DNA of 64,000 nt from an uncultured bacterium (GTDB lineage Bacteria; Omnitrophota; Omnitrophia; Omnitrophales; Aquincolibacteriaceae). Of this stretch, positions 3,801-56,510 are shown piece after piece (position 1 is the stretch's first letter; every line of letters starts with the position of its first letter). The notes under the pieces are model-generated. The model saw nothing but the letters and a program-made list of their open reading frames with translations. It had not been told where the DNA came from and did no database searches. Location: the NCBI GenBank assembly GCA_964606385.1, contig CAZSFZ010000003.1:29493-93492 (forward strand), read 5' to 3'. Position numbers and translations under genes: made by a program.

Positions 3801-6800
3801 TAATTCCGCTATAAGTAAGCGCATCCGAACGGTTAAACACTAAAGATGCGTTATTGGTGATATTCCCAAGCACGGAACCTGAGGCGGCACCGGCGCCAAT
3901 CTGAAGCGTGCCACCGCTGATCGTGGTCCCGCCCGCATAAGTGTTGTTTCCGCTTAACACAAGTGTTCCAGCGCCATCCTTGATGAGAGCCCCGTTGCTG
4001 ATCACTCCGGAAACGGCCGTATTCCCCGTGCCATCGGCCGTGAGCGTGAAGCCTCCATTATCGACACTGCCCGCCACAGTAAAAGTATTACTGCTGTTAT
4101 TCAGCCATGTCTGCGCCGCACCCAGCACCACATCGTTATTCATCGTCAGTGCACCGGCGCCGGCGTTGATCGTCACGCCCCCCGCGTTGATCGTGAGCGT
4201 ATTCCCCGCCGCGATGCTCACCGCACTCGTTGCCGTCCCCCCCTGCAGGGTCAGGCTGTGGATCGTGAAATCCTGCCCCAAGGTCGTCGCAAAACTTCCT
4301 GCGCCATCGGCGTAAAAGTAAACATCCGTATTAGATGCCGGGATCGCTCCGGTATCGACCCCGCCGCTTTGCGTCGAATCCCAGTTGGTGGTATTGCCGA
4401 CGGTTTTAGTATTCCACAGATGGTCCCCTTCACCGTCCGTCCACCACGCCGTGGCCGGACCATCCAAGGCGCCGGTGTAGGTCAGTTCGAGATTATGACC
4501 GGTCACCTGAATGCCGAAATACCCGTTGCTGAAAAATCCGGTAATAGGATTGTTATTGGTAAAATTACCCGTCGAAAGCGTGAACGCTGAGGCGGAAAAA
4601 CCGGCAATGCTTGTATCGGAGCTGGCAACGGTCCAGGTATAGTTTGAATATTTGTCAAAATTCACCACCGCTCCAGAGATACTGGCGGCATTCAATCCAG
4701 TGATGTCGATCGTGAATTTGCTGCCGGCTGTGGCCGTTATGTTGAGGCTGCCCGAGGTGATGTTTTGCCAATCCCAGCCCGGATCAGAACCTTGCGTCCC
4801 ATCAACTTTGTTGATTTCCCATTTATAGGTGCCTCCCCCGGCATAAGTTACATCTCCTACGCTTGTGAGCTTACCGGGGCTATTGCCGGGTGAAAGAACG
4901 CTCCCCGTTCCTATGGTAAGATTGCCAGAAACGGTTCCGCTCCCTTTTAGAGTTTGTCCGCTTGCTAAAATCAAATCGTCAGTGCCAGCTAATCCCGTCA
5001 CATCAAGCGCTGCGCCTGAAGCGATGTTGATGGTCGGGGAACTAGCGATATTATTATTGGTTGCTCCGGACAACGCCAGAGTCCCCGCGCTCACGGTGGT
5101 CGTCCCAGTATAGGTGTTTGTTCCTGAGAGATGGAGCGTCCCGGCCCCGGATTTTGTAAGACCTACTGCCCCACCGCCAATGACTCCCCCTACTGTCAGA
5201 GTTCCACCATTGACAGTTACCTGGCGGCCGGCGCTCATCGTCACCGCACCGGCCCCAAGATTAAGATTCTTGGTTCCCAGAAATGTGAAATCGCCATTCC
5301 AGGCCATCGGATAATCGATGGTTGTAATGTCGGCCCCGCTTGTGTTGTCAATCGTGCCCCCAGCAATCGTGAATGTTCCCGCTGCCGTGCCAAGGGCTTG
5401 CGCATTATTGATGTTTAAAGTGCCTGCATTGATCTGAAAACCTCCCGTGAAAGTATTGGCTCCGCTTAATGTCAGTATTCCATCACCCGCCTTAGTAAAC
5501 TTTCTGTTTTGTCCAGAATCACCAACAACTCCAGCCAGTGCCAGCGTGCTCGCGTTGACGGTAATGGTCCGGTTCGCGCCACTGATAGTTGCCGCTCCAT
5601 TGATGGTAAGCGGGTTCGATCCCATAAAAGTGGGGCTGCCACCGCTCATGGTGAATGCATTCGCGATTGTGAGGGCACCGCCGGAGGTGTTATCAAAAGA
5701 AACTGCCGTTGCACCGCCAATGGTATATGTCCCGGATCCTAAGGCATTCACATGACCAATGTTCAGCAACCCGCCATTCGTATTGTGGGTGACGCCTCCG
5801 CTAAATGTGTTATTCCCGCTTAAAGTCAGTGTGCCAGCGCCTGCTTTGGTTAAAGTTCTGGAGGATCCATCTTCACCCACCGCCCCAGCCAGAGTAAGCG
5901 TGCTCGCGGTGACGGTAATGGTCCGGTTATTGCCGCTGATAGTTGTCGCTCCATTGATGGTAAGCGGGTTCGATCCCACAAAAGTGGGGCTGCCACCGCT
6001 CAGGGTGAATGTATTCGCGATCGTGAGGGCGCTACCGGAGGTGTTGTCAAATGAATTGCTTCCACTCATAGTATACGTTCCAGAACCTAAGGCATTCACA
6101 TGGCCGATGTTAAGTCTTCCGCCGCTTGCATTGTGGGTGACACCTCCGCTGAAAGTGTTATTCCCGTTTAAGGTCAGCATTCCAGCACCTGCCTTGATTA
6201 AATCCCCAGACCCGCTGATAACGCGCTCATAGGCGAGATCGTCAGAGCGATTAAAGGCCAAGGTCGCATTATTTGTGATATCCCCGACCACAGAACCCGT
6301 TGTGCCTCCCGCACCAATCTGGAGTCTGCCCCCGCTGATTGTGGTGCTCCCGGCATAAGTGTTATTGCCACTCAAGATGAGAGTGCCCGTACCTTCTTTG
6401 GTGATTCCATAAGAGTTACCACCATCACTCACGATACTGGAGACTGTGAGAGTGGCAACCCCAGATCCATTGTTAGTGGTAGTCCAGGTCTGGCTCGCAC
6501 CAAGGACAAGACTGGCCACACTAATGGTATAAGTCCTAGAAGTAGCTGAAGGAATAGCCGCCGTGATGCCACTAGCTCCGACGGTCAAAATTCCACCGCC
6601 AGAGGCAATTGCAAAAGCGGCTGCGCGATTGAATGTGATGCCAAGAAAATTCGCGTCAGCATTTATGGCAGCCGTAAGGCCAGCCGTACCGAAAGTAACA
6701 GTATCCGCACCCAGAAAGGTCGGATTGATGTCGCCGGACCAGTTAGTCGCTGTGTTGATATTTGTATCTGCCACTCCTCCGCCCCCATCCCACGTAAAAG

Positions 6801-18965: not shown

Positions 18966-19032
18966 GAAACGTAACGCGGGGAACGGGAAACGAAAACACG
19001 GTCTTTCGTTCAACGTTCCCCGTTTTCCTTTC
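18966..19032. terminator. REP-like palindromic element, copy c, acting as a probable intrinsic terminator for sodB. It sits between convergent genes.
   Basis: GGGGAACGGGAAACGAAA-acacggtc-TTTCGTTcaACGTTCCCC followed by GTTTTCCTTTCTT. It shares GGGGAACG/CGTTCCCC arms with the other copies. Confidence 0.5.
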
Positions 19033-27047: not shown

Positions 27048-27111
27048 CGGGGAACGGCCCATGATGAACGGGGAACGCTTTCGTTAGCCGTTACCCGTTT
27101 CCCGTTCCCCG
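27048..27111. repeat. REP-like palindromic element, copy d.
   Basis: ggggaacggcccatgatgaacggggaacg cttt cgttagccgttacccgtttcccgttcccc, lying between the NUDIX stop and the ArsC-like start. Confidence 0.5.
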
Positions 27112-32444: not shown

Positions 32445-32515
32445 AGCGGGCAGCGGGAATCGAACCCGCATAGTCAGCTTGGAAGGCTGAGACTTTACCA
32501 TTAAGCTATGCCCGC
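32445..32515 (-). tRNA. tRNA-Gly (anticodon TCC).
   Basis: The sequence on the minus strand is GCGGGCATAGCTTAATGGTAAAGTCTCAGCCTTCCAAGCTGACTATGCGGGTTCGATTCCCGCTGCCCGCT. It folds into a cloverleaf with acceptor GCGGGCA/TGCCCGC, anticodon loop CTTCCAA, T-arm GCGGG-TTCGATT-CCCGC and discriminator T. No CCA is encoded. Immediately 3' is the hairpin ATGAACC-gcatag-GGTTCAT followed by AGCTTTT. Confidence 0.85.
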
Positions 32516-39443: not shown

Positions 39444-39533
39444 TGGCGGAGAGGGGGAGATTCGAACTCCCGATACGCTTGCGCGTATAACAGTTTTCGA
39501 GACTGCCGCATTCGGCCACTCTGCCACCTCTCC
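39444..39533 (-). tRNA. tRNA-Ser (anticodon CGA), class II with a long variable arm. CCA is encoded.
   Basis: The sequence on the minus strand is GGAGAGGTGGCAGAGTGGCCGAATGCGGCAGTCTCGAAAACTGTTATACGCGCAAGCGTATCGGGAGTTCGAATCTCCCCCTCTCCGCCA. The acceptor is GGAGAGG/CCTCTCC, the anticodon loop is CTCGAAA, the variable-arm hairpin is ATACGC-GCAA-GCGTAT, and the T-arm is GGGAG-TTCGAAT-CTCCC. Confidence 0.9.
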
Positions 39534-49831: not shown

Positions 49832-51223
49832 TTATTTACCGATGCAAAATTCCGAAAAAATTATATCCAAAAGATCCTCGGAATAGACCTCCCCGGTCAG
49901 TTCTTTCAGGGCTTCCAGGGCTGCGCGAAGGTCCGGTGAGATGCATTCGAGCGAAACATTCATCTGGAAAGACGCTTCCGCGCGCCGGATCATTTCCAGC
50001 GCCGCCTCCAGCGCCTTCTTGTGGCGCAATTTCGTGATCTGTTCTCCCGATTCCGAGGTCCCGGTCTCCAGATACGCCGCGATCCTGTTCTCAAGCTCAT
50101 GAAATCCCGTCCGGGTTTTTGCGGAGATCGCGATTGCCGGCAGATCGCCGCATAACGCCTTGATCTCGTGATCTTGGATCTTTAAAGGGAGGTCGGATTT
50201 GTTTGTTAGCACAATGATCTTTTTATTTTTGGGAATAAGCCCGAAAACATGGTGGTCGGCGTCCTCAAGCGGCGCGTGGCTATCTAATAAAAACAGCACC
50301 AGGTGACTTTCCCGCAGTGCTTCAAGCGATCGCTCCATGCCCATTTTGTCCAGGGGATGATCCGCCGCGGCGATGAGCCCCGCCGTGTCCCTCAAGCGCA
50401 CATAAAAGCCGCGGATCTCGAGCTCTTCTTCGAGGGGATCGCGTGTCGTGTGCGGCAGATCGGAAACAAGCGCCCGGTCCCGTTCCAAGAGCGCGTTAAA
50501 AAGCGAGGACTTCCCCACGTTGGGTTTTCCCGCGAGCGTCACGAGCATCCCTTCGCGGATCAACTGATTGCGTTCAAATCCCGCGATCAGGGCCTTGATC
50601 CTTTCCTGGAGCTTCGCGAATTGCTGCCGCATGCCGTCTTTAACATCCACCTCCAGATCCTCTTCCGGAAAATCAAGATAGGCTTCCATGTGGGCCAAAA
50701 GCCGCATGAGCTCTTCTTTTAATGCTTTGAGGGTGCGGGAAAGCGACCCGGAAAGCTGACGGACCGCGATCTCAAGCGAAGAATCGCTTTTGGCATGAAT
50801 AAGATCGAGCACGGCTTCGGCCTGCGTCAGGTCGATCTTGCCGTTTATGAAAGCGCGCCGCGTGAACTCCCCCGGTTCGGCATGGCGGGCGCCTTTTTCC
50901 AAAAGAAATCCCAGGATCTTCTTCGTGACCGCGAAACCTCCGTGACAGCTGATCTCGATCACGTCCTGCCCCGTATAGGAACGGGGGGCGCGAAAACAAC
51001 TCACGAGCACCTGGTCCAAAAGGGCCCCCGAAGGGTCCGTGAATTTCCCCCATTGGACCGTGTTCGCGGTCGCCTCTTTGAGTTTCTTCTTTTCGTGAGG
51101 GACAAAGAACGGCTCCACCAGATCGTAGGCTTGGGGGCCGCTCACGCGGATCACCGCGATGCCGCCTTCGCCCGCCGGCGTTGCTACCGCGGCGATCGTA
51201 TCGTCCATTTCCATTTTAGCCAT
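49832..51223 (-). CDS. mnmE: tRNA modification GTPase MnmE (TrmE).
   Basis: An N-terminal THF-binding domain (IAAVATPAGEGGIAVIRVSG), the GTPase motifs GKPNVGKSS and DTAG, and the C-terminal CIGK tetrapeptide. The start at MAKME (51223) is preferred over the track's 51412. Confidence 0.9.
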   Translation of the reverse strand: MAKMEMDDTIAAVATPAGEGGIAVIRVSGPQAYDLVEPFFVPHEKKKLKEATANTVQWGKFTDPSGALLDQVLVSCFRAPRSYTGQDVIEISCHGGFAVTKKILGFLLEKGARHAEPGEFTRRAFINGKIDLTQAEAVLDLIHAKSDSSLEIAVRQLSGSLSRTLKALKEELMRLLAHMEAYLDFPEEDLEVDVKDGMRQQFAKLQERIKALIAGFERNQLIREGMLVTLAGKPNVGKSSLFNALLERDRALVSDLPHTTRDPLEEELEIRGFYVRLRDTAGLIAAADHPLDKMGMERSLEALRESHLVLFLLDSHAPLEDADHHVFGLIPKNKKIIVLTNKSDLPLKIQDHEIKALCGDLPAIAISAKTRTGFHELENRIAAYLETGTSESGEQITKLRHKKALEAALEMIRRAEASFQMNVSLECISPDLRAALEALKELTGEVYSEDLLDIIFSEFCIGK

Positions 51224-52535
51224 GAGTGAGAACCTTTCGCGCTTCACCGACCAAATAGAACGATCCCGCCACCACGACGCTATCTCCCGTACTTGAAACC
51301 TTCCGGACCAGCTCAAAGGCTTCACGGATATTCTGGGCCGGGAGCATGCATTTGAAAAGTCCTTTAGCTTCATCGAGAAGCATGGAAACGGTTTTCGCCC
51401 GGTTCCCGTCAATGCCGGTCAGGATTATTTTAGAAAAAAATCCGCTCAGGATCCGGAGCATCTCGCGGCTGTTCTTGTCATTCATCGCGCCAAACACCAA
51501 CCAAAGATTCCTCTTTTTTTCGTCATTGCGAGCGCAGCGAAGCAATCTATAGCGTGCGAGATTGCCGCGTCGCCTCTCCTCCGTCGCGGCTCCTCGCAAT
51601 GACATAATAAGCCCTTTCGTTGAGATCGGATTGTGGGCGCCATCCAGAATGAACCTCCGTCCATGTTGCTGGAAGGCTTCCATCCTTCCTTTCCAGTGAC
51701 GGCATTGCAATCCCTGTTTGGATCGCTCGAGCGTGAGTGGATAATGAAAATATTTTTGAAGAATCTCAGCTGCTTTCCAAGCGACGCCCGCGTTCTGCTT
51801 TTGAAAACCTCCGGCCAGTCCCAGCCTGACGCCGGAAAAAGGTCCGGCTTTCCACAAAGTTCCGCGGTTCTTTTTGACCGACCCGTGGATCACCCTCAAA
51901 GCCTCCGGGGCCTGATTTCCGATCACCACATGGTTTCGGAATTTGATGATCGCGGCCTTTTCCGCGGCGATCCTCGCGATCGTGCTCCCCAGGAACGCTT
52001 CATGATCGAGATGGATGGGCGTGAGGATCACCAGCGGTGCTTTCAGGACATTGGTCGCGTCAAGACGCCCGCCAAGCCCGATCTCGAAGATGCCGATCCG
52101 GACGCCTGTCCTCGCGAAGATCCAGATCGCCAAAAAGGTCAGGATCTCGAAATAGGTCAGAACTCCCAATCGGCCCGGGAGAGGGTTTTTGTTTAAAAGA
52201 TTCCGGATCACCGAAAGGCCTTCCGCCCAAAGCTTGGGGGATGCCATGTCCCCTTGGATCCGGATGCGTTCACGCGGGGTTTCCACATGCGGTGAATGAT
52301 AATAGCCTGTCTGGATGCCGTTGGTTTTGAGAATGGACTCCAGAAAAAACCCTGTAGAGCCCTTACCGGTCGTACCGGCGATCAGGATCGGGAAAAATTT
52401 CTTTTCGGGGTGGCCGCTGATCCGGAGCAGATGCTCCATGCGTTTCAGATTAAAGAAGGCGTTGTCCGGGAACCGGCTCAGCTTTTCGAGGTTCAGGAAG
52501 GAATCAAGATAGCTGAGGGATTGGGAGTAATTCAT
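51216..52535 (-). CDS. folC: Bifunctional folylpolyglutamate synthase / dihydrofolate synthase, carrying an in-frame ~27-aa insertion encoded by a palindromic element.
   Basis: The Mur-ligase family P-loop IAGTTGKGST, plus DATNV and LDGAHNP. Between AHNP and LVFGAM lies an extra segment ...GAATEERRRGNLARYRLLRCARNDEKK..., encoded by the 51522-51603 TIR element. Confidence 0.85.
   Translation of the reverse strand: MNYSQSLSYLDSFLNLEKLSRFPDNAFFNLKRMEHLLRISGHPEKKFFPILIAGTTGKGSTGFFLESILKTNGIQTGYYHSPHVETPRERIRIQGDMASPKLWAEGLSVIRNLLNKNPLPGRLGVLTYFEILTFLAIWIFARTGVRIGIFEIGLGGRLDATNVLKAPLVILTPIHLDHEAFLGSTIARIAAEKAAIIKFRNHVVIGNQAPEALRVIHGSVKKNRGTLWKAGPFSGVRLGLAGGFQKQNAGVAWKAAEILQKYFHYPLTLERSKQGLQCRHWKGRMEAFQQHGRRFILDGAHNPISTKGLIMSLRGAATEERRRGNLARYRLLRCARNDEKKRNLWLVFGAMNDKNSREMLRILSGFFSKIILTGIDGNRAKTVSMLLDEAKGLFKCMLPAQNIREAFELVRKVSSTGDSVVVAGSFYLVGEARKVLTHG
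51522..51603. repeat. 82-bp palindromic MITE/RPE-like element inserted in-frame in folC.
   Basis: The 11-bp terminal inverted repeats are GTCATTGCGAG ... CTCGCAATGAC. Internal nested inverted repeats are gcaatct/agattgc and gccgcg/cgcggc. Flanks are AT-rich (tttttttc | ataataag). The core gtcattgcgagcgcagcgaagcaatc resembles a palindromic repeat seen in many uncultivated-bacterial genomes. Confidence 0.55.
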
Positions 52536-52540
52536 TTTCT

Positions 52541-52603
52541 CGGGAAACGGGGAACGGCAAACGAGAAACGATCCGTTAACCGTTCGTCGTTACCCGTTCC
52601 CCG
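52541..52603. repeat. REP-like palindromic element, copy e, between purH and folC.
   Basis: gggaaacggggaacggcaaacgagaaacgatccgttaaccgttcgtcgttacccgttcccc. The arms are GGGGAACGG/CCGTTCCCC and the core is CCGTTAACCG. Confidence 0.5.
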
Positions 52604-52608
52604 ATGTT

Positions 52609-54186
52609 TTAATGTTTAAAATGCCGCTCGCCGGTGAAGGCCATCGCGATGCCGGCCTGGTCGCAGGCGGCGATCACATCGTTATCGCGGATGGAACCAC
52701 CGGGCTGGATGATCGCCTTGATCTTGTGCTTGGCCGCGAATTCGATCGAATCCGGCATTGGGAAAAAAGCGTCGCTTCCGAGCATCGCGCCTTCGGCTAG
52801 GTATCCCGCCTTCTGGATCGCGATCTGCACCGAGTCCACGCGGGACATCTGCCCTGCCCCGATCCCGACCGTTCGTTTGCCCTGCGTCAGCACGATCGCG
52901 TTCGATTTCACAACTTTGGAGCACTGGAACGCGAAGATCAGCTCTTCGGTCTCGGCTTCGGACAGTTTGGCCTTTGTAACAAAGTTCAGTTTCTTTTTAA
53001 GTTCCGCCATGTGATCTTTGATGGGACGGTTCTTTTCCTGGACCAGGATGCCTGTGCGAAGGAACTTCACGTCGTAAAGGTTCTCGTCGCGGAATTGATG
53101 GACCTCGATCAGGCGGAGGTTTTTGCGCGCTTTAAGAAGCTTGAGCGCTCCCGGCTTGAAGGACGGGGCGACCAGCACTTCAAAGAACGCGAGCTTCTCG
53201 AGCACCTTTTCCGCGATCTTCCGGTCGCAGCAACGGTTCACGCCCACGATCCCGCCAAAAGCGGAGAGCGGATCGCCGTCGATCGCCTTTTCGACCGCGA
53301 CAAGCGCTTGCGTGTCCTGCGCGATGCCGCAGGGATTGTTGTGCTTAATGACGCACGCGGCCGGCGCGTTGAACTCCGCGAGCACATCGAGCGTCGCGTC
53401 CACGTCCATGAGGTTATTAAAGGAAAGCTCCTTGCCGTGAAGCTGGGTCCAGGAGGCCCCGGCCTTTTGCGTGGTCGGGATGTAATAGGCGGCTTTTTGA
53501 TGCGGGTTCTCGCCGTACCGCAGGTCCTGCGCCTTTTTGAAATGGAACACAAATTGCGGCGGGAGCGCGGCGTCTTCCGCGGTTTTCTTTTTATGTTTGG
53601 CCATGTATTGGCTGATCACCGCGTCATACGCGGACGTTTTTTCAAAAACCTTTTGTGAAAGCGCGAACCGCGTTTCATCCGTCACGCTTCCCTTGTGCTC
53701 ATCAAGTTCTTTGGCGACGCGATCATAGTCCGCAACGTCCGTGATCACGGTCACCGATTCATAGTTCTTGGCCGCGGAACGGAGCATGGACGGCCCGCCG
53801 ATATCGATGAATTCCTTGGCCTCGTCCATACTGAGGTTCCCCTTGCTCGTCGCTTCTTCGAAGGGATACAGGTTCACGACCACGAGGTCGATGGGCTTGA
53901 TCCCGTGCGCTTTGACCTGTTTCTGGTGGCTTTTTTTGTGGCGGAGGAAAAGAAGCCCGCCGTGGATCTTCGGGTGAAGGGTTTTCACGCGGCCGTCGAG
54001 CATTTCGGGAAAACCCGTGTAATCCTCGACCGCCATCGCGGGGACCTTGGCGTCCTTCAGGGCTTTCAGCGTGCCGCCGGTGGAAAGGATCTCCGCGCCG
54101 TGTCTTCGCAGGGTTTTGGCAAAAGGGATAAGACCTGTTTTATCAGAGACGCTGATGAGCGCGCGATGGACCGTGTGACGTGACAT
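52609..54186 (-). CDS. purH: Bifunctional AICAR formyltransferase / IMP cyclohydrolase.
   Basis: The N-terminal MGS-like segment ALISVSDKTGLIPFAKTLRRHGAEILSTGGT. The protein is 525 aa with the AICARFT/IMPCHase blocks. Confidence 0.95.
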   Translation of the reverse strand: MSRHTVHRALISVSDKTGLIPFAKTLRRHGAEILSTGGTLKALKDAKVPAMAVEDYTGFPEMLDGRVKTLHPKIHGGLLFLRHKKSHQKQVKAHGIKPIDLVVVNLYPFEEATSKGNLSMDEAKEFIDIGGPSMLRSAAKNYESVTVITDVADYDRVAKELDEHKGSVTDETRFALSQKVFEKTSAYDAVISQYMAKHKKKTAEDAALPPQFVFHFKKAQDLRYGENPHQKAAYYIPTTQKAGASWTQLHGKELSFNNLMDVDATLDVLAEFNAPAACVIKHNNPCGIAQDTQALVAVEKAIDGDPLSAFGGIVGVNRCCDRKIAEKVLEKLAFFEVLVAPSFKPGALKLLKARKNLRLIEVHQFRDENLYDVKFLRTGILVQEKNRPIKDHMAELKKKLNFVTKAKLSEAETEELIFAFQCSKVVKSNAIVLTQGKRTVGIGAGQMSRVDSVQIAIQKAGYLAEGAMLGSDAFFPMPDSIEFAAKHKIKAIIQPGGSIRDNDVIAACDQAGIAMAFTGERHFKH

Positions 54187-55039
54187 CGTGTTGAACCCTC
54201 CTCTTAAAGCAGCGGTGTAGTTTTAAAGTGATGGGACCGGGTTTTCCGGACCCGATCGAGCGACCATCCAACTCGCGGACCGGCAGGACCTCCCAGGAAG
54301 TATTGCAAAGAAAAGCTTCATCCGCGTTGAAAAATTCGTGCCGGGTCAGCGGAACTTCCCGGACTTTTATCCCGCATTCGAGGGCGCATTTTATCACAAA
54401 CCTCCGGGTCACTCCATTCAAGATTCCGTGCTCCGGCGGCGTCAAAAGCTCCGCGCCCTGACCTGTCCGACCTCCGGGGTCGGATCGGTCCGACCTCCGG
54501 GGTCGGATCCGGTATTTCACGATGAAGAAATTCCCGATCCGGGTCTCGGTCAGCAGACCCTCCCGGTCCAGGAATACCCATTCATAGACCTTATCCGCGT
54601 GGGGCTCGGTACTCGCCATGATCGCCTGCTGATAGGCCGAGGTTTTGGCCTGCCAGGGAAAGGTGCTGGGCCCACCCCTCGGGAACGTCGCGGTCTTCAG
54701 GGCGACCCCTTCCTCGTAAATTCTTTGGGGATGCTCCCGGAACCCCAGCATCACAAAAGAACGGCCCTCCCATAAAGTCAGCCGCACAAAACATTCCGGA
54801 GCCCCGAAAGCGTGAAGTGCCGCCGCGAGCTCCCGCCGCAGCCGCGCCGGATCCGGCATCGGCCGGTAACCCACGGTCCTGGCCGACTCCAGAAGCCGCG
54901 CGAGATGTTCCTTTTCATGAAAGATACGGCCGCGATAAGCGCGCATGCTCTCAAAAACGCCGGCGGCTTCGGTCTTCGCCAGGTCCAGCGAGATCTGCCC
55001 CGCGATTTCTTTTCCGTTCTCGTAAATTTTATAAGCCAT
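54143..55039 (-). CDS. pabC: Class IV aminotransferase fold protein, probably aminodeoxychorismate lyase (PabC), with a repeat-derived loop insertion.
   Basis: The fold-type IV PLP motifs are present (E..GNFFIVK ... LLTPPEHGILNGVTRRFVI). It is immediately downstream of the pabB-like gene. About 16 extra residues (RIRPRRSDRSDPGGRTGQG) are encoded by a tandem 2x23-bp hairpin repeat at 54466-54511. The start at MAYKIY (55039) is preferred. Confidence 0.65.
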   Translation of the reverse strand: MAYKIYENGKEIAGQISLDLAKTEAAGVFESMRAYRGRIFHEKEHLARLLESARTVGYRPMPDPARLRRELAAALHAFGAPECFVRLTLWEGRSFVMLGFREHPQRIYEEGVALKTATFPRGGPSTFPWQAKTSAYQQAIMASTEPHADKVYEWVFLDREGLLTETRIGNFFIVKYRIRPRRSDRSDPGGRTGQGAELLTPPEHGILNGVTRRFVIKCALECGIKVREVPLTRHEFFNADEAFLCNTSWEVLPVRELDGRSIGSGKPGPITLKLHRCFKRRVQHDVTSHGPSRAHQRL

Positions 55040-55052
55040 AGGGTGACAGGGT

Positions 55053-56510
55053 TTAACGTCCGGCTTGTCGAAGCGCCTGAACAAGCGCTTTCGCTTTGTG
55101 AAGGGTCTCTTCATATTCTTTTCCGGGGTCCGAATCATGAACGATCCCCGCCCCGACCTGGAGATGCCCTTTGCCTTTTTTCAGGATCAGGGTCCGGATC
55201 ACGATGTTCAGGTCCATGTCCCCGTGAAGGTCGATATACCCGAGGGAACCCGTATAAACACCGCGCCGCACGGGCTCCAGCTCGTCGATGATCTCCATGC
55301 AGCGGATCTTCGGGCACCCCGTGATCGTCCCGCCCGGGAACATCGCCCGGATCAGGTCGAAGGCACCCCTGTCTTTTTTGAGATGGCCCACGATCTTCGA
55401 GACGATATGCACCACATGAGAGTATTTTTCAAGCGTCATGAATTCCTCAACCTTCACGGAGCGGTAACCGCAAACGCGGCCGAGATCGTTCCGTTCAAGG
55501 TCCACAAGCATCAAGTGTTCCGACTTTTCTTTTTCATTCCGGAGAAGGTTCCGGCGCCACTCCGCCAGCTTGTTTGAGGAACGGCGGACGGGGCAGGTCC
55601 CCGCGATCGGACGGGTCTCGCAAAGCCGTCCTTTTTTCCGGACCAGCCGCTCCGGAGAAGAACTAACGATCTCCAGATCCCCTGTTTTGAGAAAACAGGA
55701 GAAAGGCGACGGATTGATCGAACGAAGTTTTCCGTAAAGCGCCAGCGGCGATCCCTGGTATCCGAACGAGAAACGCTGCGACAGGTTCGCCTGGTAGATA
55801 TCCCCGGCCGCGATATATTCTTTCGCCTTCTCCACCATGATTTTGAACCGTCGCCTCGTCATCTCCGCCGTAAATTTCTTCAACTTGAACTGCCGTTTTG
55901 TTTTCATGACGGGCTTTCCAAAATATGCTCTGAGCTTTTTCGATTCCCGTTCCCCGTTCCCCGTTCCCCGAACATTGATCACGACGTGATAAACACGTTT
56001 TCGGTGATCATAAACGATCACATCCCGGAAAAGGCCGAGATAAACCCGGGGGACGCGCGGATCGGGCTTGGCGCGGAACCGGATCTTGTCGCAAAGTTCG
56101 GCCGCCTCATACCCGAAATAACCCACCCACCCTCCCGTAAAAAAAGGGCGGCGTGGCGCTGCCGGAAGCCGGTATTTTTTAAAGAGCTTTTTGAGAACGG
56201 GAAAAAGGTCGCGCGCGGGATACCGTCCGCGACATTCGCCTTCTATGGAAAGAGACTCCCGGTCCAGCCGGATCTCGAGGGCCGGGTCCATCCCGATATA
56301 GGAATAAACCTGGTCCGGGGGCGCATATTGAGGAGAACCCTGACTTTTATTTTTTTTTAGAAAGTCAGGATTGCCCCAATTTCCTCGAAGAGGAAATTGA
56401 TTGGGGTCGGGACTATCCAGGAAAAAGCAGGCTTGGGAATCAGCGTGGACGGCTTGAAAGATCTCCCAAGGGGTTCGGGACGATCGGAAGGTTTCGATCA
56501 CAAAGGACAT
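55053..56510 (-). CDS. pabB: Aminodeoxychorismate synthase / anthranilate synthase component I family (chorismate-binding enzyme).
   Basis: The C-terminal chorismate-binding domain (FPGGTITGCPKIRCMEIIDELE...RGVYTGSLGY). It is coupled to pabC. It contains an in-frame (cgttcccc)x3 microsatellite at 55944-55970 that encodes ..GTGNGERE.. Confidence 0.8.
   Translation of the reverse strand: MSFVIETFRSSRTPWEIFQAVHADSQACFFLDSPDPNQFPLRGNWGNPDFLKKNKSQGSPQYAPPDQVYSYIGMDPALEIRLDRESLSIEGECRGRYPARDLFPVLKKLFKKYRLPAAPRRPFFTGGWVGYFGYEAAELCDKIRFRAKPDPRVPRVYLGLFRDVIVYDHRKRVYHVVINVRGTGNGERESKKLRAYFGKPVMKTKRQFKLKKFTAEMTRRRFKIMVEKAKEYIAAGDIYQANLSQRFSFGYQGSPLALYGKLRSINPSPFSCFLKTGDLEIVSSSPERLVRKKGRLCETRPIAGTCPVRRSSNKLAEWRRNLLRNEKEKSEHLMLVDLERNDLGRVCGYRSVKVEEFMTLEKYSHVVHIVSKIVGHLKKDRGAFDLIRAMFPGGTITGCPKIRCMEIIDELEPVRRGVYTGSLGYIDLHGDMDLNIVIRTLILKKGKGHLQVGAGIVHDSDPGKEYEETLHKAKALVQALRQAGR

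Follow-up and report, generated by a model that had tools for sequence, protein, structure and literature searches.

We describe a palindromic element of 82 bp at positions 51522-51603 of a 64,000-nucleotide stretch of DNA from an uncultured bacterium of the Omnitrophota (GenBank assembly GCA_964606385.1, contig CAZSFZ010000003.1, positions 29,493 to 93,492; the whole stretch is hereafter called the window), where it lies in frame within folC, the gene for folylpolyglutamate synthase/dihydrofolate synthase (FPGS/DHFS). Comparison with other sequences makes it probable that what lies in folC is a copy of a dispersed palindromic repeat, translated and tolerated there, and that the short FolC linker which it occupies is a recurrent landing pad for hairpins at which alleles are also exchanged. 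The element is absent from the nearest ortholog, belongs by its ends and layout to a repeat family found in several phyla, keeps the reading frame open and falls at a helix-to-strand linker, and this linker is filled repeatedly in other Omnitrophota. Palindromic repeats in frame within housekeeping genes are best known from Rickettsia. The class is already known; what adds interest here is a cross-phylum family without a known transposase, together with two insertion sites that can be reused.

The palindromic element and its position in FolC

The element had been predicted from the letters alone as a palindrome with perfect 11-bp ends, and its sequence is exactly as claimed. On the plus strand it reads GTCATTGCGAG-CGCAGCGAA-GCAATCT-ATAGCGTGCG-AGATTGC-CGCGTCGCCTCTCCTCCGTCGCGGCTC-CTCGCAATGAC, in which the end repeat GTCATTGCGAG (51522-51532) and its perfect reverse complement CTCGCAATGAC (51593-51603), 11 bp each, stand 60 nt apart. 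The internal palindromes and A/T-rich flanks that had also been described were found as an inner 7-bp stem (GCAATCT at 51542-51548 with AGATTGC at 51559-51565), an additional inverted repeat (51564-51572 with 51582-51590) within the 27-nt stretch 51566-51592, which is CGCGTCGCCTCTCCTCCGTCGCGGCTC, and flanks of T7 on one side and ATAATAA on the other. Taken apart, the element is a head-to-head dimer of two unlike monomers, and neither the dimer as a whole nor its central spacer has an assigned strand. The first monomer, of a short type (51521-51548, plus strand), consists of a CGTC tag (51521-51524), the end repeat, the interior CGCAGCGAA, a GCAATC core and a T tail, while the second, of a long type (51559-51604, minus strand), begins with a TGTC tag (51604-51601) and continues with the same end repeat, the 27-nt interior with its own hairpin, and GCAATCT. 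Between the inner stem arms lies the 10-nt spacer or loop ATAGCGTGCG (51549-51558), which is the variable part of the family, and the tails of the window element are CTA and CTC.

As single-stranded DNA (ssDNA) the element has a predicted fold of -23.8 kcal/mol (z -3.85), a stability reached by none of 200 shuffled sequences, and for its sense-strand RNA the value is -37.3 kcal/mol (z -2.2); in either form the copy would form one long hairpin. Monomer 2 folds even when taken alone (-15.2 kcal/mol, z -3.7). Within the 64-kb window the 11-mer of the end repeat does not occur again, and the 20-nt core is unique even when 3 mismatches are allowed. A permissive Rfam search at the locus returned only matches with E > 1, and a scan for promoters and terminators gave no site resembling either at the element. 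Searched as a whole at the gathering thresholds of Rfam 15, the window yielded two tRNAs only, both away from the element, at 32445-32515 and 39447-39533 on the minus strand. The window is rich in hairpins overall, with 14 perfect 11-nt inverted repeats (spacer up to 100 nt) compared with 3.0 ± 2.3 in Markov shuffles.

The host gene folC (51216-52535, minus strand) is an intact open reading frame (ORF) of 439 amino acids with a Pfam Mur_ligase_C match (4.7e-14), and its closest homologs are FPGS/DHFS proteins, typically of 416 amino acids, from metagenome-assembled genomes (MAGs) of Candidatus Omnitrophota. In an alignment of 38 sequences it retains all invariant columns, including those of the P-loop and the DGAHNP block. 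As expected from the original prediction, the element is read through with no stop codon (...LIM SLRGAATEERRRGNLARYRLLRCARND EKKRNLW...) and encodes residues S312-D338, between DGAHNP and LVFGAM. The nearest ortholog free of the insert, P0002/L001, is 84% identical outside the linker and reads ATT CGT TCG CTT CAG GCT CAA AAG; the window has ATT AT-[82 bp]-GAA AAA AAG there, such that 84 nt stand in place of 15 native nt and the net gain is 69 nt or 23 residues, somewhat short of the 27 or so first estimated. The conserved S-L-R residues at the end of a helix are now encoded by the left end of the element (G TCA TTG CGA G).

Structural comparison was possible with two relatives in the PDB, 1o5z and 1fgs. 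The Thermotoga maritima FPGS 1o5z aligns with the window protein on both flanks of the insert, which corresponds in position to a 7-residue helix-to-strand linker of the C-terminal domain, and in an AlphaFold2 model (mean predicted local distance difference test score, pLDDT, 82.6) the only segment below pLDDT 50 is residues 318-341, that is, the insert. The alignment and the restriction of low pLDDT to the insert support its placement in a permissive surface linker of FolC, in agreement with the surface loop proposed at the outset. About 24-27 residues translated from the element would thus be mostly disordered and exposed at the surface, and for this reason the enzyme would be expected to stay intact.

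A dispersed family of palindromic repeats

The core of the element had been suspected to recur among uncultivated bacteria, and it does so widely. The pattern GTCATTGCGAG-N40-70-CTCGCAATGAC, which by its form selects head-to-head dimers, was run on IMG/VR and returned more than 120 loci, with 143 copies of 64-92 nt (mode 82-84) among the matches listed, and further copies were found in named bacteria of several phyla. Their common layout is [C/T]GTC-ATTGCGAG-(variable interior)-GCAAT-CCA/CTC, followed by a variable spacer and then the mirror image, with monomers of about 30-45 nt. A profile built from 137 unrelated IMG/VR copies matches the window element with E = 2.9e-14, and on this sequence evidence 51522-51603 is a genuine copy of the family and not a chance palindrome. 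The interior CGCAGCGAA of monomer 1 marks the second commonest monomer type (21 of the 234 monomers listed), and the interior class to which this type belongs, CG[N]AGCGAA, is the commonest in the family. Interiors range from 1 to 27 nt, the longer ones holding a variable hairpin of their own as in monomer 2 of the window, and every copy collected has the ATTGC...GCAAT core.

The boundaries of the repeat were read from 129 copies. The bases just outside the ends are C..G in 72 of them and T..A in 33 (at position -1, C accounts for 63% and T for 33%), from which we take C/TGTC to be the true end. Monomers terminate in CCA (57%) or CTC (23%), and the two arms co-vary, with CCA/CCA in 64 copies and CTC/CTC in 21. 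Target-site duplications were not detected in this set, direct repeats in the flanks being no more frequent than chance for 1-3 nt and, for 4-5 nt, limited to single copies. The predicted fold of consensus monomers, about -2.7 kcal/mol, does not exceed that of shuffled sequences in stability, and pairing is through ATTGC/GCAAT (5 bp) only, so that in the consensus the stable hairpin is a property of the dimer.

The carriers are diverse. The pSA1 record of Novosphingobium resinovorum has at least 40 family matches in 1.76 Mb, and other copies occur in N. aromaticivorans, Methylosinus trichosporium, Methylobacterium, the cyanobacterium Aulosira laxa and prophages of Helicobacter canis, as well as in MAGs of the Desulfobacteraceae and Acidobacteriota. 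The Acidobacteriota MAG (L157, 20425-20510) has a variant with compensating changes in both ends, GTCATTCCGAG/CTCGGAATGAC. Density is generally low, with 2 copies in 1.30 Mb of folC-surrounding DNA from 80 genomes of other phyla. Genes beside the IMG/VR copies (contigs L007-L126) are mainly structural genes of phages or of the gene-transfer-agent type (e.g., portal, capsid, and host-specificity genes), and two phage portal genes themselves carry the repeat in frame (941-1015 of L116, SPP1_portal 2.7e-20; 5727-5810 of L093, Phage_portal 7.9e-54), translated in both as VIAS...PRND. The other long stop-free frames across IMG/VR copies were discarded as mostly GC-rich junk, leaving these two portal genes as the only credible cases. 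Full-text literature searches with the end-repeat and core strings returned unrelated primers only, and a search on Omnitrophota combined with palindromic repeats returned nothing relevant.

Filling of the folC linker and its possible causes

The linker was surveyed in 99 Omnitrophota FolC sequences with a delimitable DGAHN-to-FGAM segment. About 55 of the 99 have a segment of 31 amino acids, and the others are filled at the same point. A control set of 59 FolC genes from other phyla, obtained by scanning a genome collection with the FolC alignment (best identity 44% among the matches listed), shares the short linker length, which is therefore taken as ancestral. The short linkers of the control set and the closest ortholog P0002, which has no element, bear out the expectation that the insertion is lineage-specific. 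The idea that empty linkers are eroded elements was dropped, since their length is that of the universal FolC linker and their S-L codons vary from one empty allele to another.

Inserts at this point fall into five recurring types. Type A is the window family itself (window/P0001, P0005, P0053, and P0003); type B consists of CCCCG[C/T]AGAGACCGGGTCTCT perfect palindromes (L228 and L222); type C comprises GGGGACAG-ended hairpins with a TIRYT-type end consensus (L221 and L229); type D is recognized by its peptide ...SPLYTPGVY... (P0006, P0025, P0030, P0085, and P0087), and L208, the sole member available as DNA, shows no clear palindrome; and type E contains GGGACTCG repeats (L227). P0003 and P0006 were compared as protein only, and the linker inserts examined as DNA are strong hairpins of -40 to -58 kcal/mol when folded as RNA. 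Outside the linker, the families other than type A are present in multiple copies within their own loci, chiefly between genes. In a tree built with the loop masked, insert types are scattered and every type-A allele adjoins an empty or differently filled one; identity is 96.3% between P0003 (type A) and P0020 (empty), and 92.4% between P0008 (type C) and P0021 (empty). The picture of one simple insertion gives way, in view of same-family and unrelated hairpins at one linker, to that of a recurrent landing pad with allele exchange.

FolC orthologs also differ at their termini. N-terminal extensions resembling MADG..PSAIRHPS occur in P0004, P0008, P0030, P0065, and P0066, and C-terminal ones resembling ..GQRSA..KAQRK..LRADR in P0009, P0011, P0019, P0044, and P0074; these recurrent extensions look like gene calls that have run into repeats flanking folC.

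Independent assemblies contain the window element or its relatives. An identical copy lies in folC of L003, an independent Joint Genome Institute (JGI) assembly, and related ones are present in L004 and, from two separate runs, in L005 and L006; orthologs of about 70% identity hold elements of the same family that share both codon position and orientation. The window and L003 also form a mosaic, with an identity of about 99.5% between 51661 and 48989, through mnmE, but of about 88% between 51661 and 52441, and with a breakpoint at 51661-51721 (no strand assigned), 60-120 nt upstream of the element in the sense of the gene. A comparable pattern is seen in P0003 and P0020, which are identical over about the first 267 residues and then differ at clustered positions that begin about 30-45 codons ahead of the linker and reach to the end, including the residues just ahead of the element (KSLVM vs KEQVR). 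Because mosaics lie beside the element in two independent pairs, homologous recombination seems to carry filled folC alleles from one lineage to another.

Possible traces of former occupation are found at three linkers. In L227, CGTCATTGAGA precedes the type-E hairpin as a possible footprint of the left end, and in L221 a degenerate, short, type-A-like element stands ahead of the type-C hairpin and may be a footprint as well. L224 (P0019), whose linker has the empty length, reads GTC ATG TCC TTG CGG GCC (TGTCCTTGCGGG), a 10/12 match to the left end, which would be either the footprint of a deletion or a target imitating the end.

A second site with the same behavior lies in the neighboring pabC-like gene (Aminotran_4), at the beta-turn GNFF[LI][VI]K-...-LLTPPEH, where hairpin inserts of 17-25 residues and of differing families were found in 7 of 8 loci. 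The insert of the window is at 54465-54509 (minus strand) in the ORF 54146-55138, between GNFFIVK and LLTPPEH, and consists of two tandem GATCCGACCCCGGAGGTCGGAC units read as RIRPRRSDRSDPGGRTGQG. In L228, one perfect-palindrome family (CAGAGACCGGGTCTCTG...) fills both the pabC-like site and the folC site (1146-1185 and 4065-4114), which points to lineage-specific re-colonization by a locally active repeat.

Another hairpin family, CGGGGAACGG...CCGTTCCCCG, has three intergenic copies in the window (18977-19023, 27048-27111, and 52548-52603), one of which occupies the 73-bp folC-purH spacer, directly upstream of the folC start. A half-motif of this family is repeated in tandem (CCCGTTCCCCGTTCCCCGTTCCCCG, 55945-55970) in a chorismate-binding, pabB-like ORF (55056-56510, minus strand), where it is in frame as part of the peptide NVRGTGNGERES.

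Taken together, these comparisons suggest a course of events in which an element would have been moved in trans, with a single-stranded hairpin as the intermediate, as the absence of target duplication and of coding capacity in the family would imply by analogy with repetitive extragenic palindromic (REP) sequences and REPINs. Such hairpin repeats would insert into the folC linker or replace earlier hairpins there, homologous recombination would shuffle filled and empty folC alleles between lineages, and an occasional hairpin deletion would leave footprints.

We acknowledge that several observations weigh against the view that the element is a dispersed repeat at a recurrently used site. Because 82 bp is not a multiple of three, a lone insertion would shift the frame, and a 13- or 15-nt replacement has to have accompanied it. 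The original prediction named the lack of further copies or relatives of the element in the genome as grounds against itself, and this objection cannot be set aside, since the 64-kb window holds a single copy and the related Omnitrophota DNA, about 289 kb, has the family at this folC linker only; with the folC linker as the sole location, multi-copy colonization or current mobility in these genomes finds no support. No transposase or other mobilizing gene recurs among the 1904 ORFs near the 143 IMG/VR copies. The three sequenced type-A folC copies are neither clearly independent of one another nor clearly each other's closest relatives, and the mosaics could be chimeric metagenome assemblies.

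A stronger form of the landing-pad explanation, which we offer tentatively and regard as possible but doubtful, is that the folC and pabC-like sites are true pads to which at least five unrelated hairpin families (C/TGTC-ATTGC, CCCCG[C/T]AGAGACC, GGGGACAG, GGGACTCG, and the window's GATCCGACCCCGGAGGTCGGAC) are directed by a mechanism guided by structure or by remnants, beyond what tolerance of a loop would provide. If true, the two sites would be a natural assay for the machinery that moves CGTC-type repeats across phyla.

A single, ancient insertion into folC, now immobile and made patchy by recombination, lineage sorting and deletion with no preference for the site, is the rival that survives best, though we judge it unlikely. 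It would account for the shared position, orientation and upstream flank (K-S/G-L-V/I-M/T) of the same-family folC copies, for the lack of further family copies in the clade DNA, for the possible footprints in L224, L227, and L221, and for mosaics (P0003/P0020 and window/L003) that break next to the element. The window and L004 copies, moreover, have in common a rare left-monomer subtype, that of monomer 2 in the window, and the best match of the L004 copy is the window copy. Seen from the window, however, the nearest relative is an IMG/VR copy and not that of L004 or L005, and the C-terminal halves of filled alleles cluster weakly. At least four unrelated hairpin families at the linker, the same behavior at the pabC-like turn, and the double filling in L228 are more than one event could account for.

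Selection for the hairpin itself, as a useful stem-loop in folC mRNA or DNA (e.g., for stability, processing, inter-domain translational pausing, or protein binding), is distinctly improbable. It is attractive in that the inserts examined as DNA, from five unrelated families, are all strong hairpins, the sense RNA of the window element folding at -37.3 kcal/mol, and in that the pabC-like beta-turn, in the same operon, shows the same pattern. Most orthologs lack an insert, which weakens it: the FolC of other phyla and about 55 of 95 clade orthologs are insert-free, and orthologs of 92-96% identity differ in presence or absence. Neither the Rfam nor the promoter and terminator scans gave a match at the element, and within their own genomes the hairpin families are nothing more unusual than multi-copy repeats between genes.

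A local origin, in which template switching or an inverted duplication would have acted on native folC sequence, is very improbable indeed. The left end does encode the native S-L-R, some empty alleles already read CGT TCA TTG AGG at that place, and L224 has its left-end-like 12-mer with no remaining element; local duplication cannot, however, yield ends and an interior that match a family found in over 120 contigs unrelated to one another and in several phyla, and this match effectively refutes it. An artefact of mis-assembly or an inactivated folC is hardly credible at all, for although these are metagenome assemblies with mosaic patterns nearby, independent assemblies have the identical element (L003) or related ones (L004, L005, and L006), and the ORF is intact with all its invariant residues.

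The dispersed-repeat and landing-pad explanation, which these alternatives leave as the preferred one, gives the element its context, and it is the context that is the more useful, as the repeated filling of two sites offers a testable case for how repeats choose their sites or survive in them. In practice, insertions of this kind make proteins longer, give rise to gene calls with spurious extensions at the N- and C-termini, and adjoin junctions of metagenome assemblies that are mosaic or possibly chimeric.

Comparison with known palindromic repeats

Rickettsia palindromic elements (RPEs; RPE-1 and its relatives) are many-copy repeats within one genus of intracellular bacteria, and are said, following work by Ogata and colleagues in 2000, to occur in frame within housekeeping genes, at positions on the protein surface and with the protein not destroyed. 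The window element resembles them as a palindromic repeat in frame within a functional housekeeping gene at a permissive surface site, and differs in having one copy in the window, in its host, which belongs to a free-living candidate phylum, and in a site that serves several hairpin families unrelated to one another.

REPINs have GTAG as their tag, lie outside genes and are confined to one species in the typical case, and are associated with a REP-associated tyrosine transposase (RAYT; TnpA_REP, Y1 HUH) whose gene is flanked by the same repeats. Like them, the window family consists of paired inverted repeats that form one long hairpin, is non-autonomous, leaves no target duplication, and presumably moves as ssDNA; unlike them, it ends in C/TGTC and not GTAG, and keeps the same ends across phyla. 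No RAYT-type gene recurs near the IMG/VR copies, and the window had no search aimed at Y1 transposases. The MITEs of bacteria (miniature transposable elements with inverted repeats), such as the Correia/NEMIS elements of Neisseria and the QMITEs of Coxiella, are derived from insertion sequences (IS), share their ends and produce target-site duplications. Shortness, non-coding character, terminal inverted repeats and an occasional transcription or translation within host genes are common to these and to the window family, whereas the latter shows no duplication in 129 copies and no parent IS among the neighbors of its IMG/VR copies.

Two groups of repeats in the literature are relevant to the linker inserts. 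The terminal inverted repeats of TIRYT, or subclass 2.1 TnpA_REP, have the end consensus GGGG[AT][CG]A[CG] (PMC3733652, PMC6006769) and match the GGGGACAG-ended hairpins (L221 and L229) that use the folC pad alongside the window family, but they are a sequence family distinct from the window element. The CGTC-tagged REPs (Di Nocera, De Gregorio & Rocco 2013, BMC Genomics 14:522, PMC3733652), by contrast, resemble the element closely: they have an unpaired CGTC tag at the outer ends (often TGTC, with CCTC as a further variant), a stem that starts with A-T and T-A pairs, a 3-nt CCA tail and monomers with 8-9-bp stems and 4-5-nt loops, are mostly head-to-head dimers, occur in five phyla with no dedicated transposase found, and encode 20-30 residues when the dimers are intragenic; RPE-4 and RPE-6 of Rickettsia conorii and dRS3 of Neisseria are among them (PMC3733652).

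Likeness between these repeats and the window family extends to the C/TGTC tags, the A-T start of the core, head-to-head dimers of often unlike monomers, spread over several phyla, absence of a transposase among the genes found, and dimers in frame. In the tail the likeness is partial, with CCA in 57% of the family's monomers and CTA and CTC in the window copy. The peptides agree as well, for RPE-6 in frame gives SFLRKQES...LDSRFRGND (PMC3733652 supplement), and the end frames are similar to those in the window (SFLRK...SRFRGND vs SLRGA...LLRCARND). The comparison with RPEs drawn in the original prediction thus holds, given that the CGTC-tagged RPE-4 and RPE-6 are themselves head-to-head dimers encoding 20-30 in-frame residues with similar peptide ends (PMC3733652). 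The monomers of the window family, on the other hand, pair only through ATTGC/GCAAT, their interior is variable (1-27 nt) and sometimes holds a hairpin. CGTC-tagged REPs are repeated many times in the host genome; the window element is single-copy in the sampled DNA, and at least 40 matches to its family are present in pSA1. The ATTGCGAG motif was not found in the text or supplements of PMC3733652, and because the 8-9-bp stem is missing, the family is not placed in the four published CGTC families. The window family works like CGTC-type REP dimers and RPEs and is probably related to them. The RPE-like phenomenon would by this comparison extend to an uncultured, free-living candidate phylum, with the ends of the element conserved from Alphaproteobacteria to Omnitrophota and in phage-like contigs.

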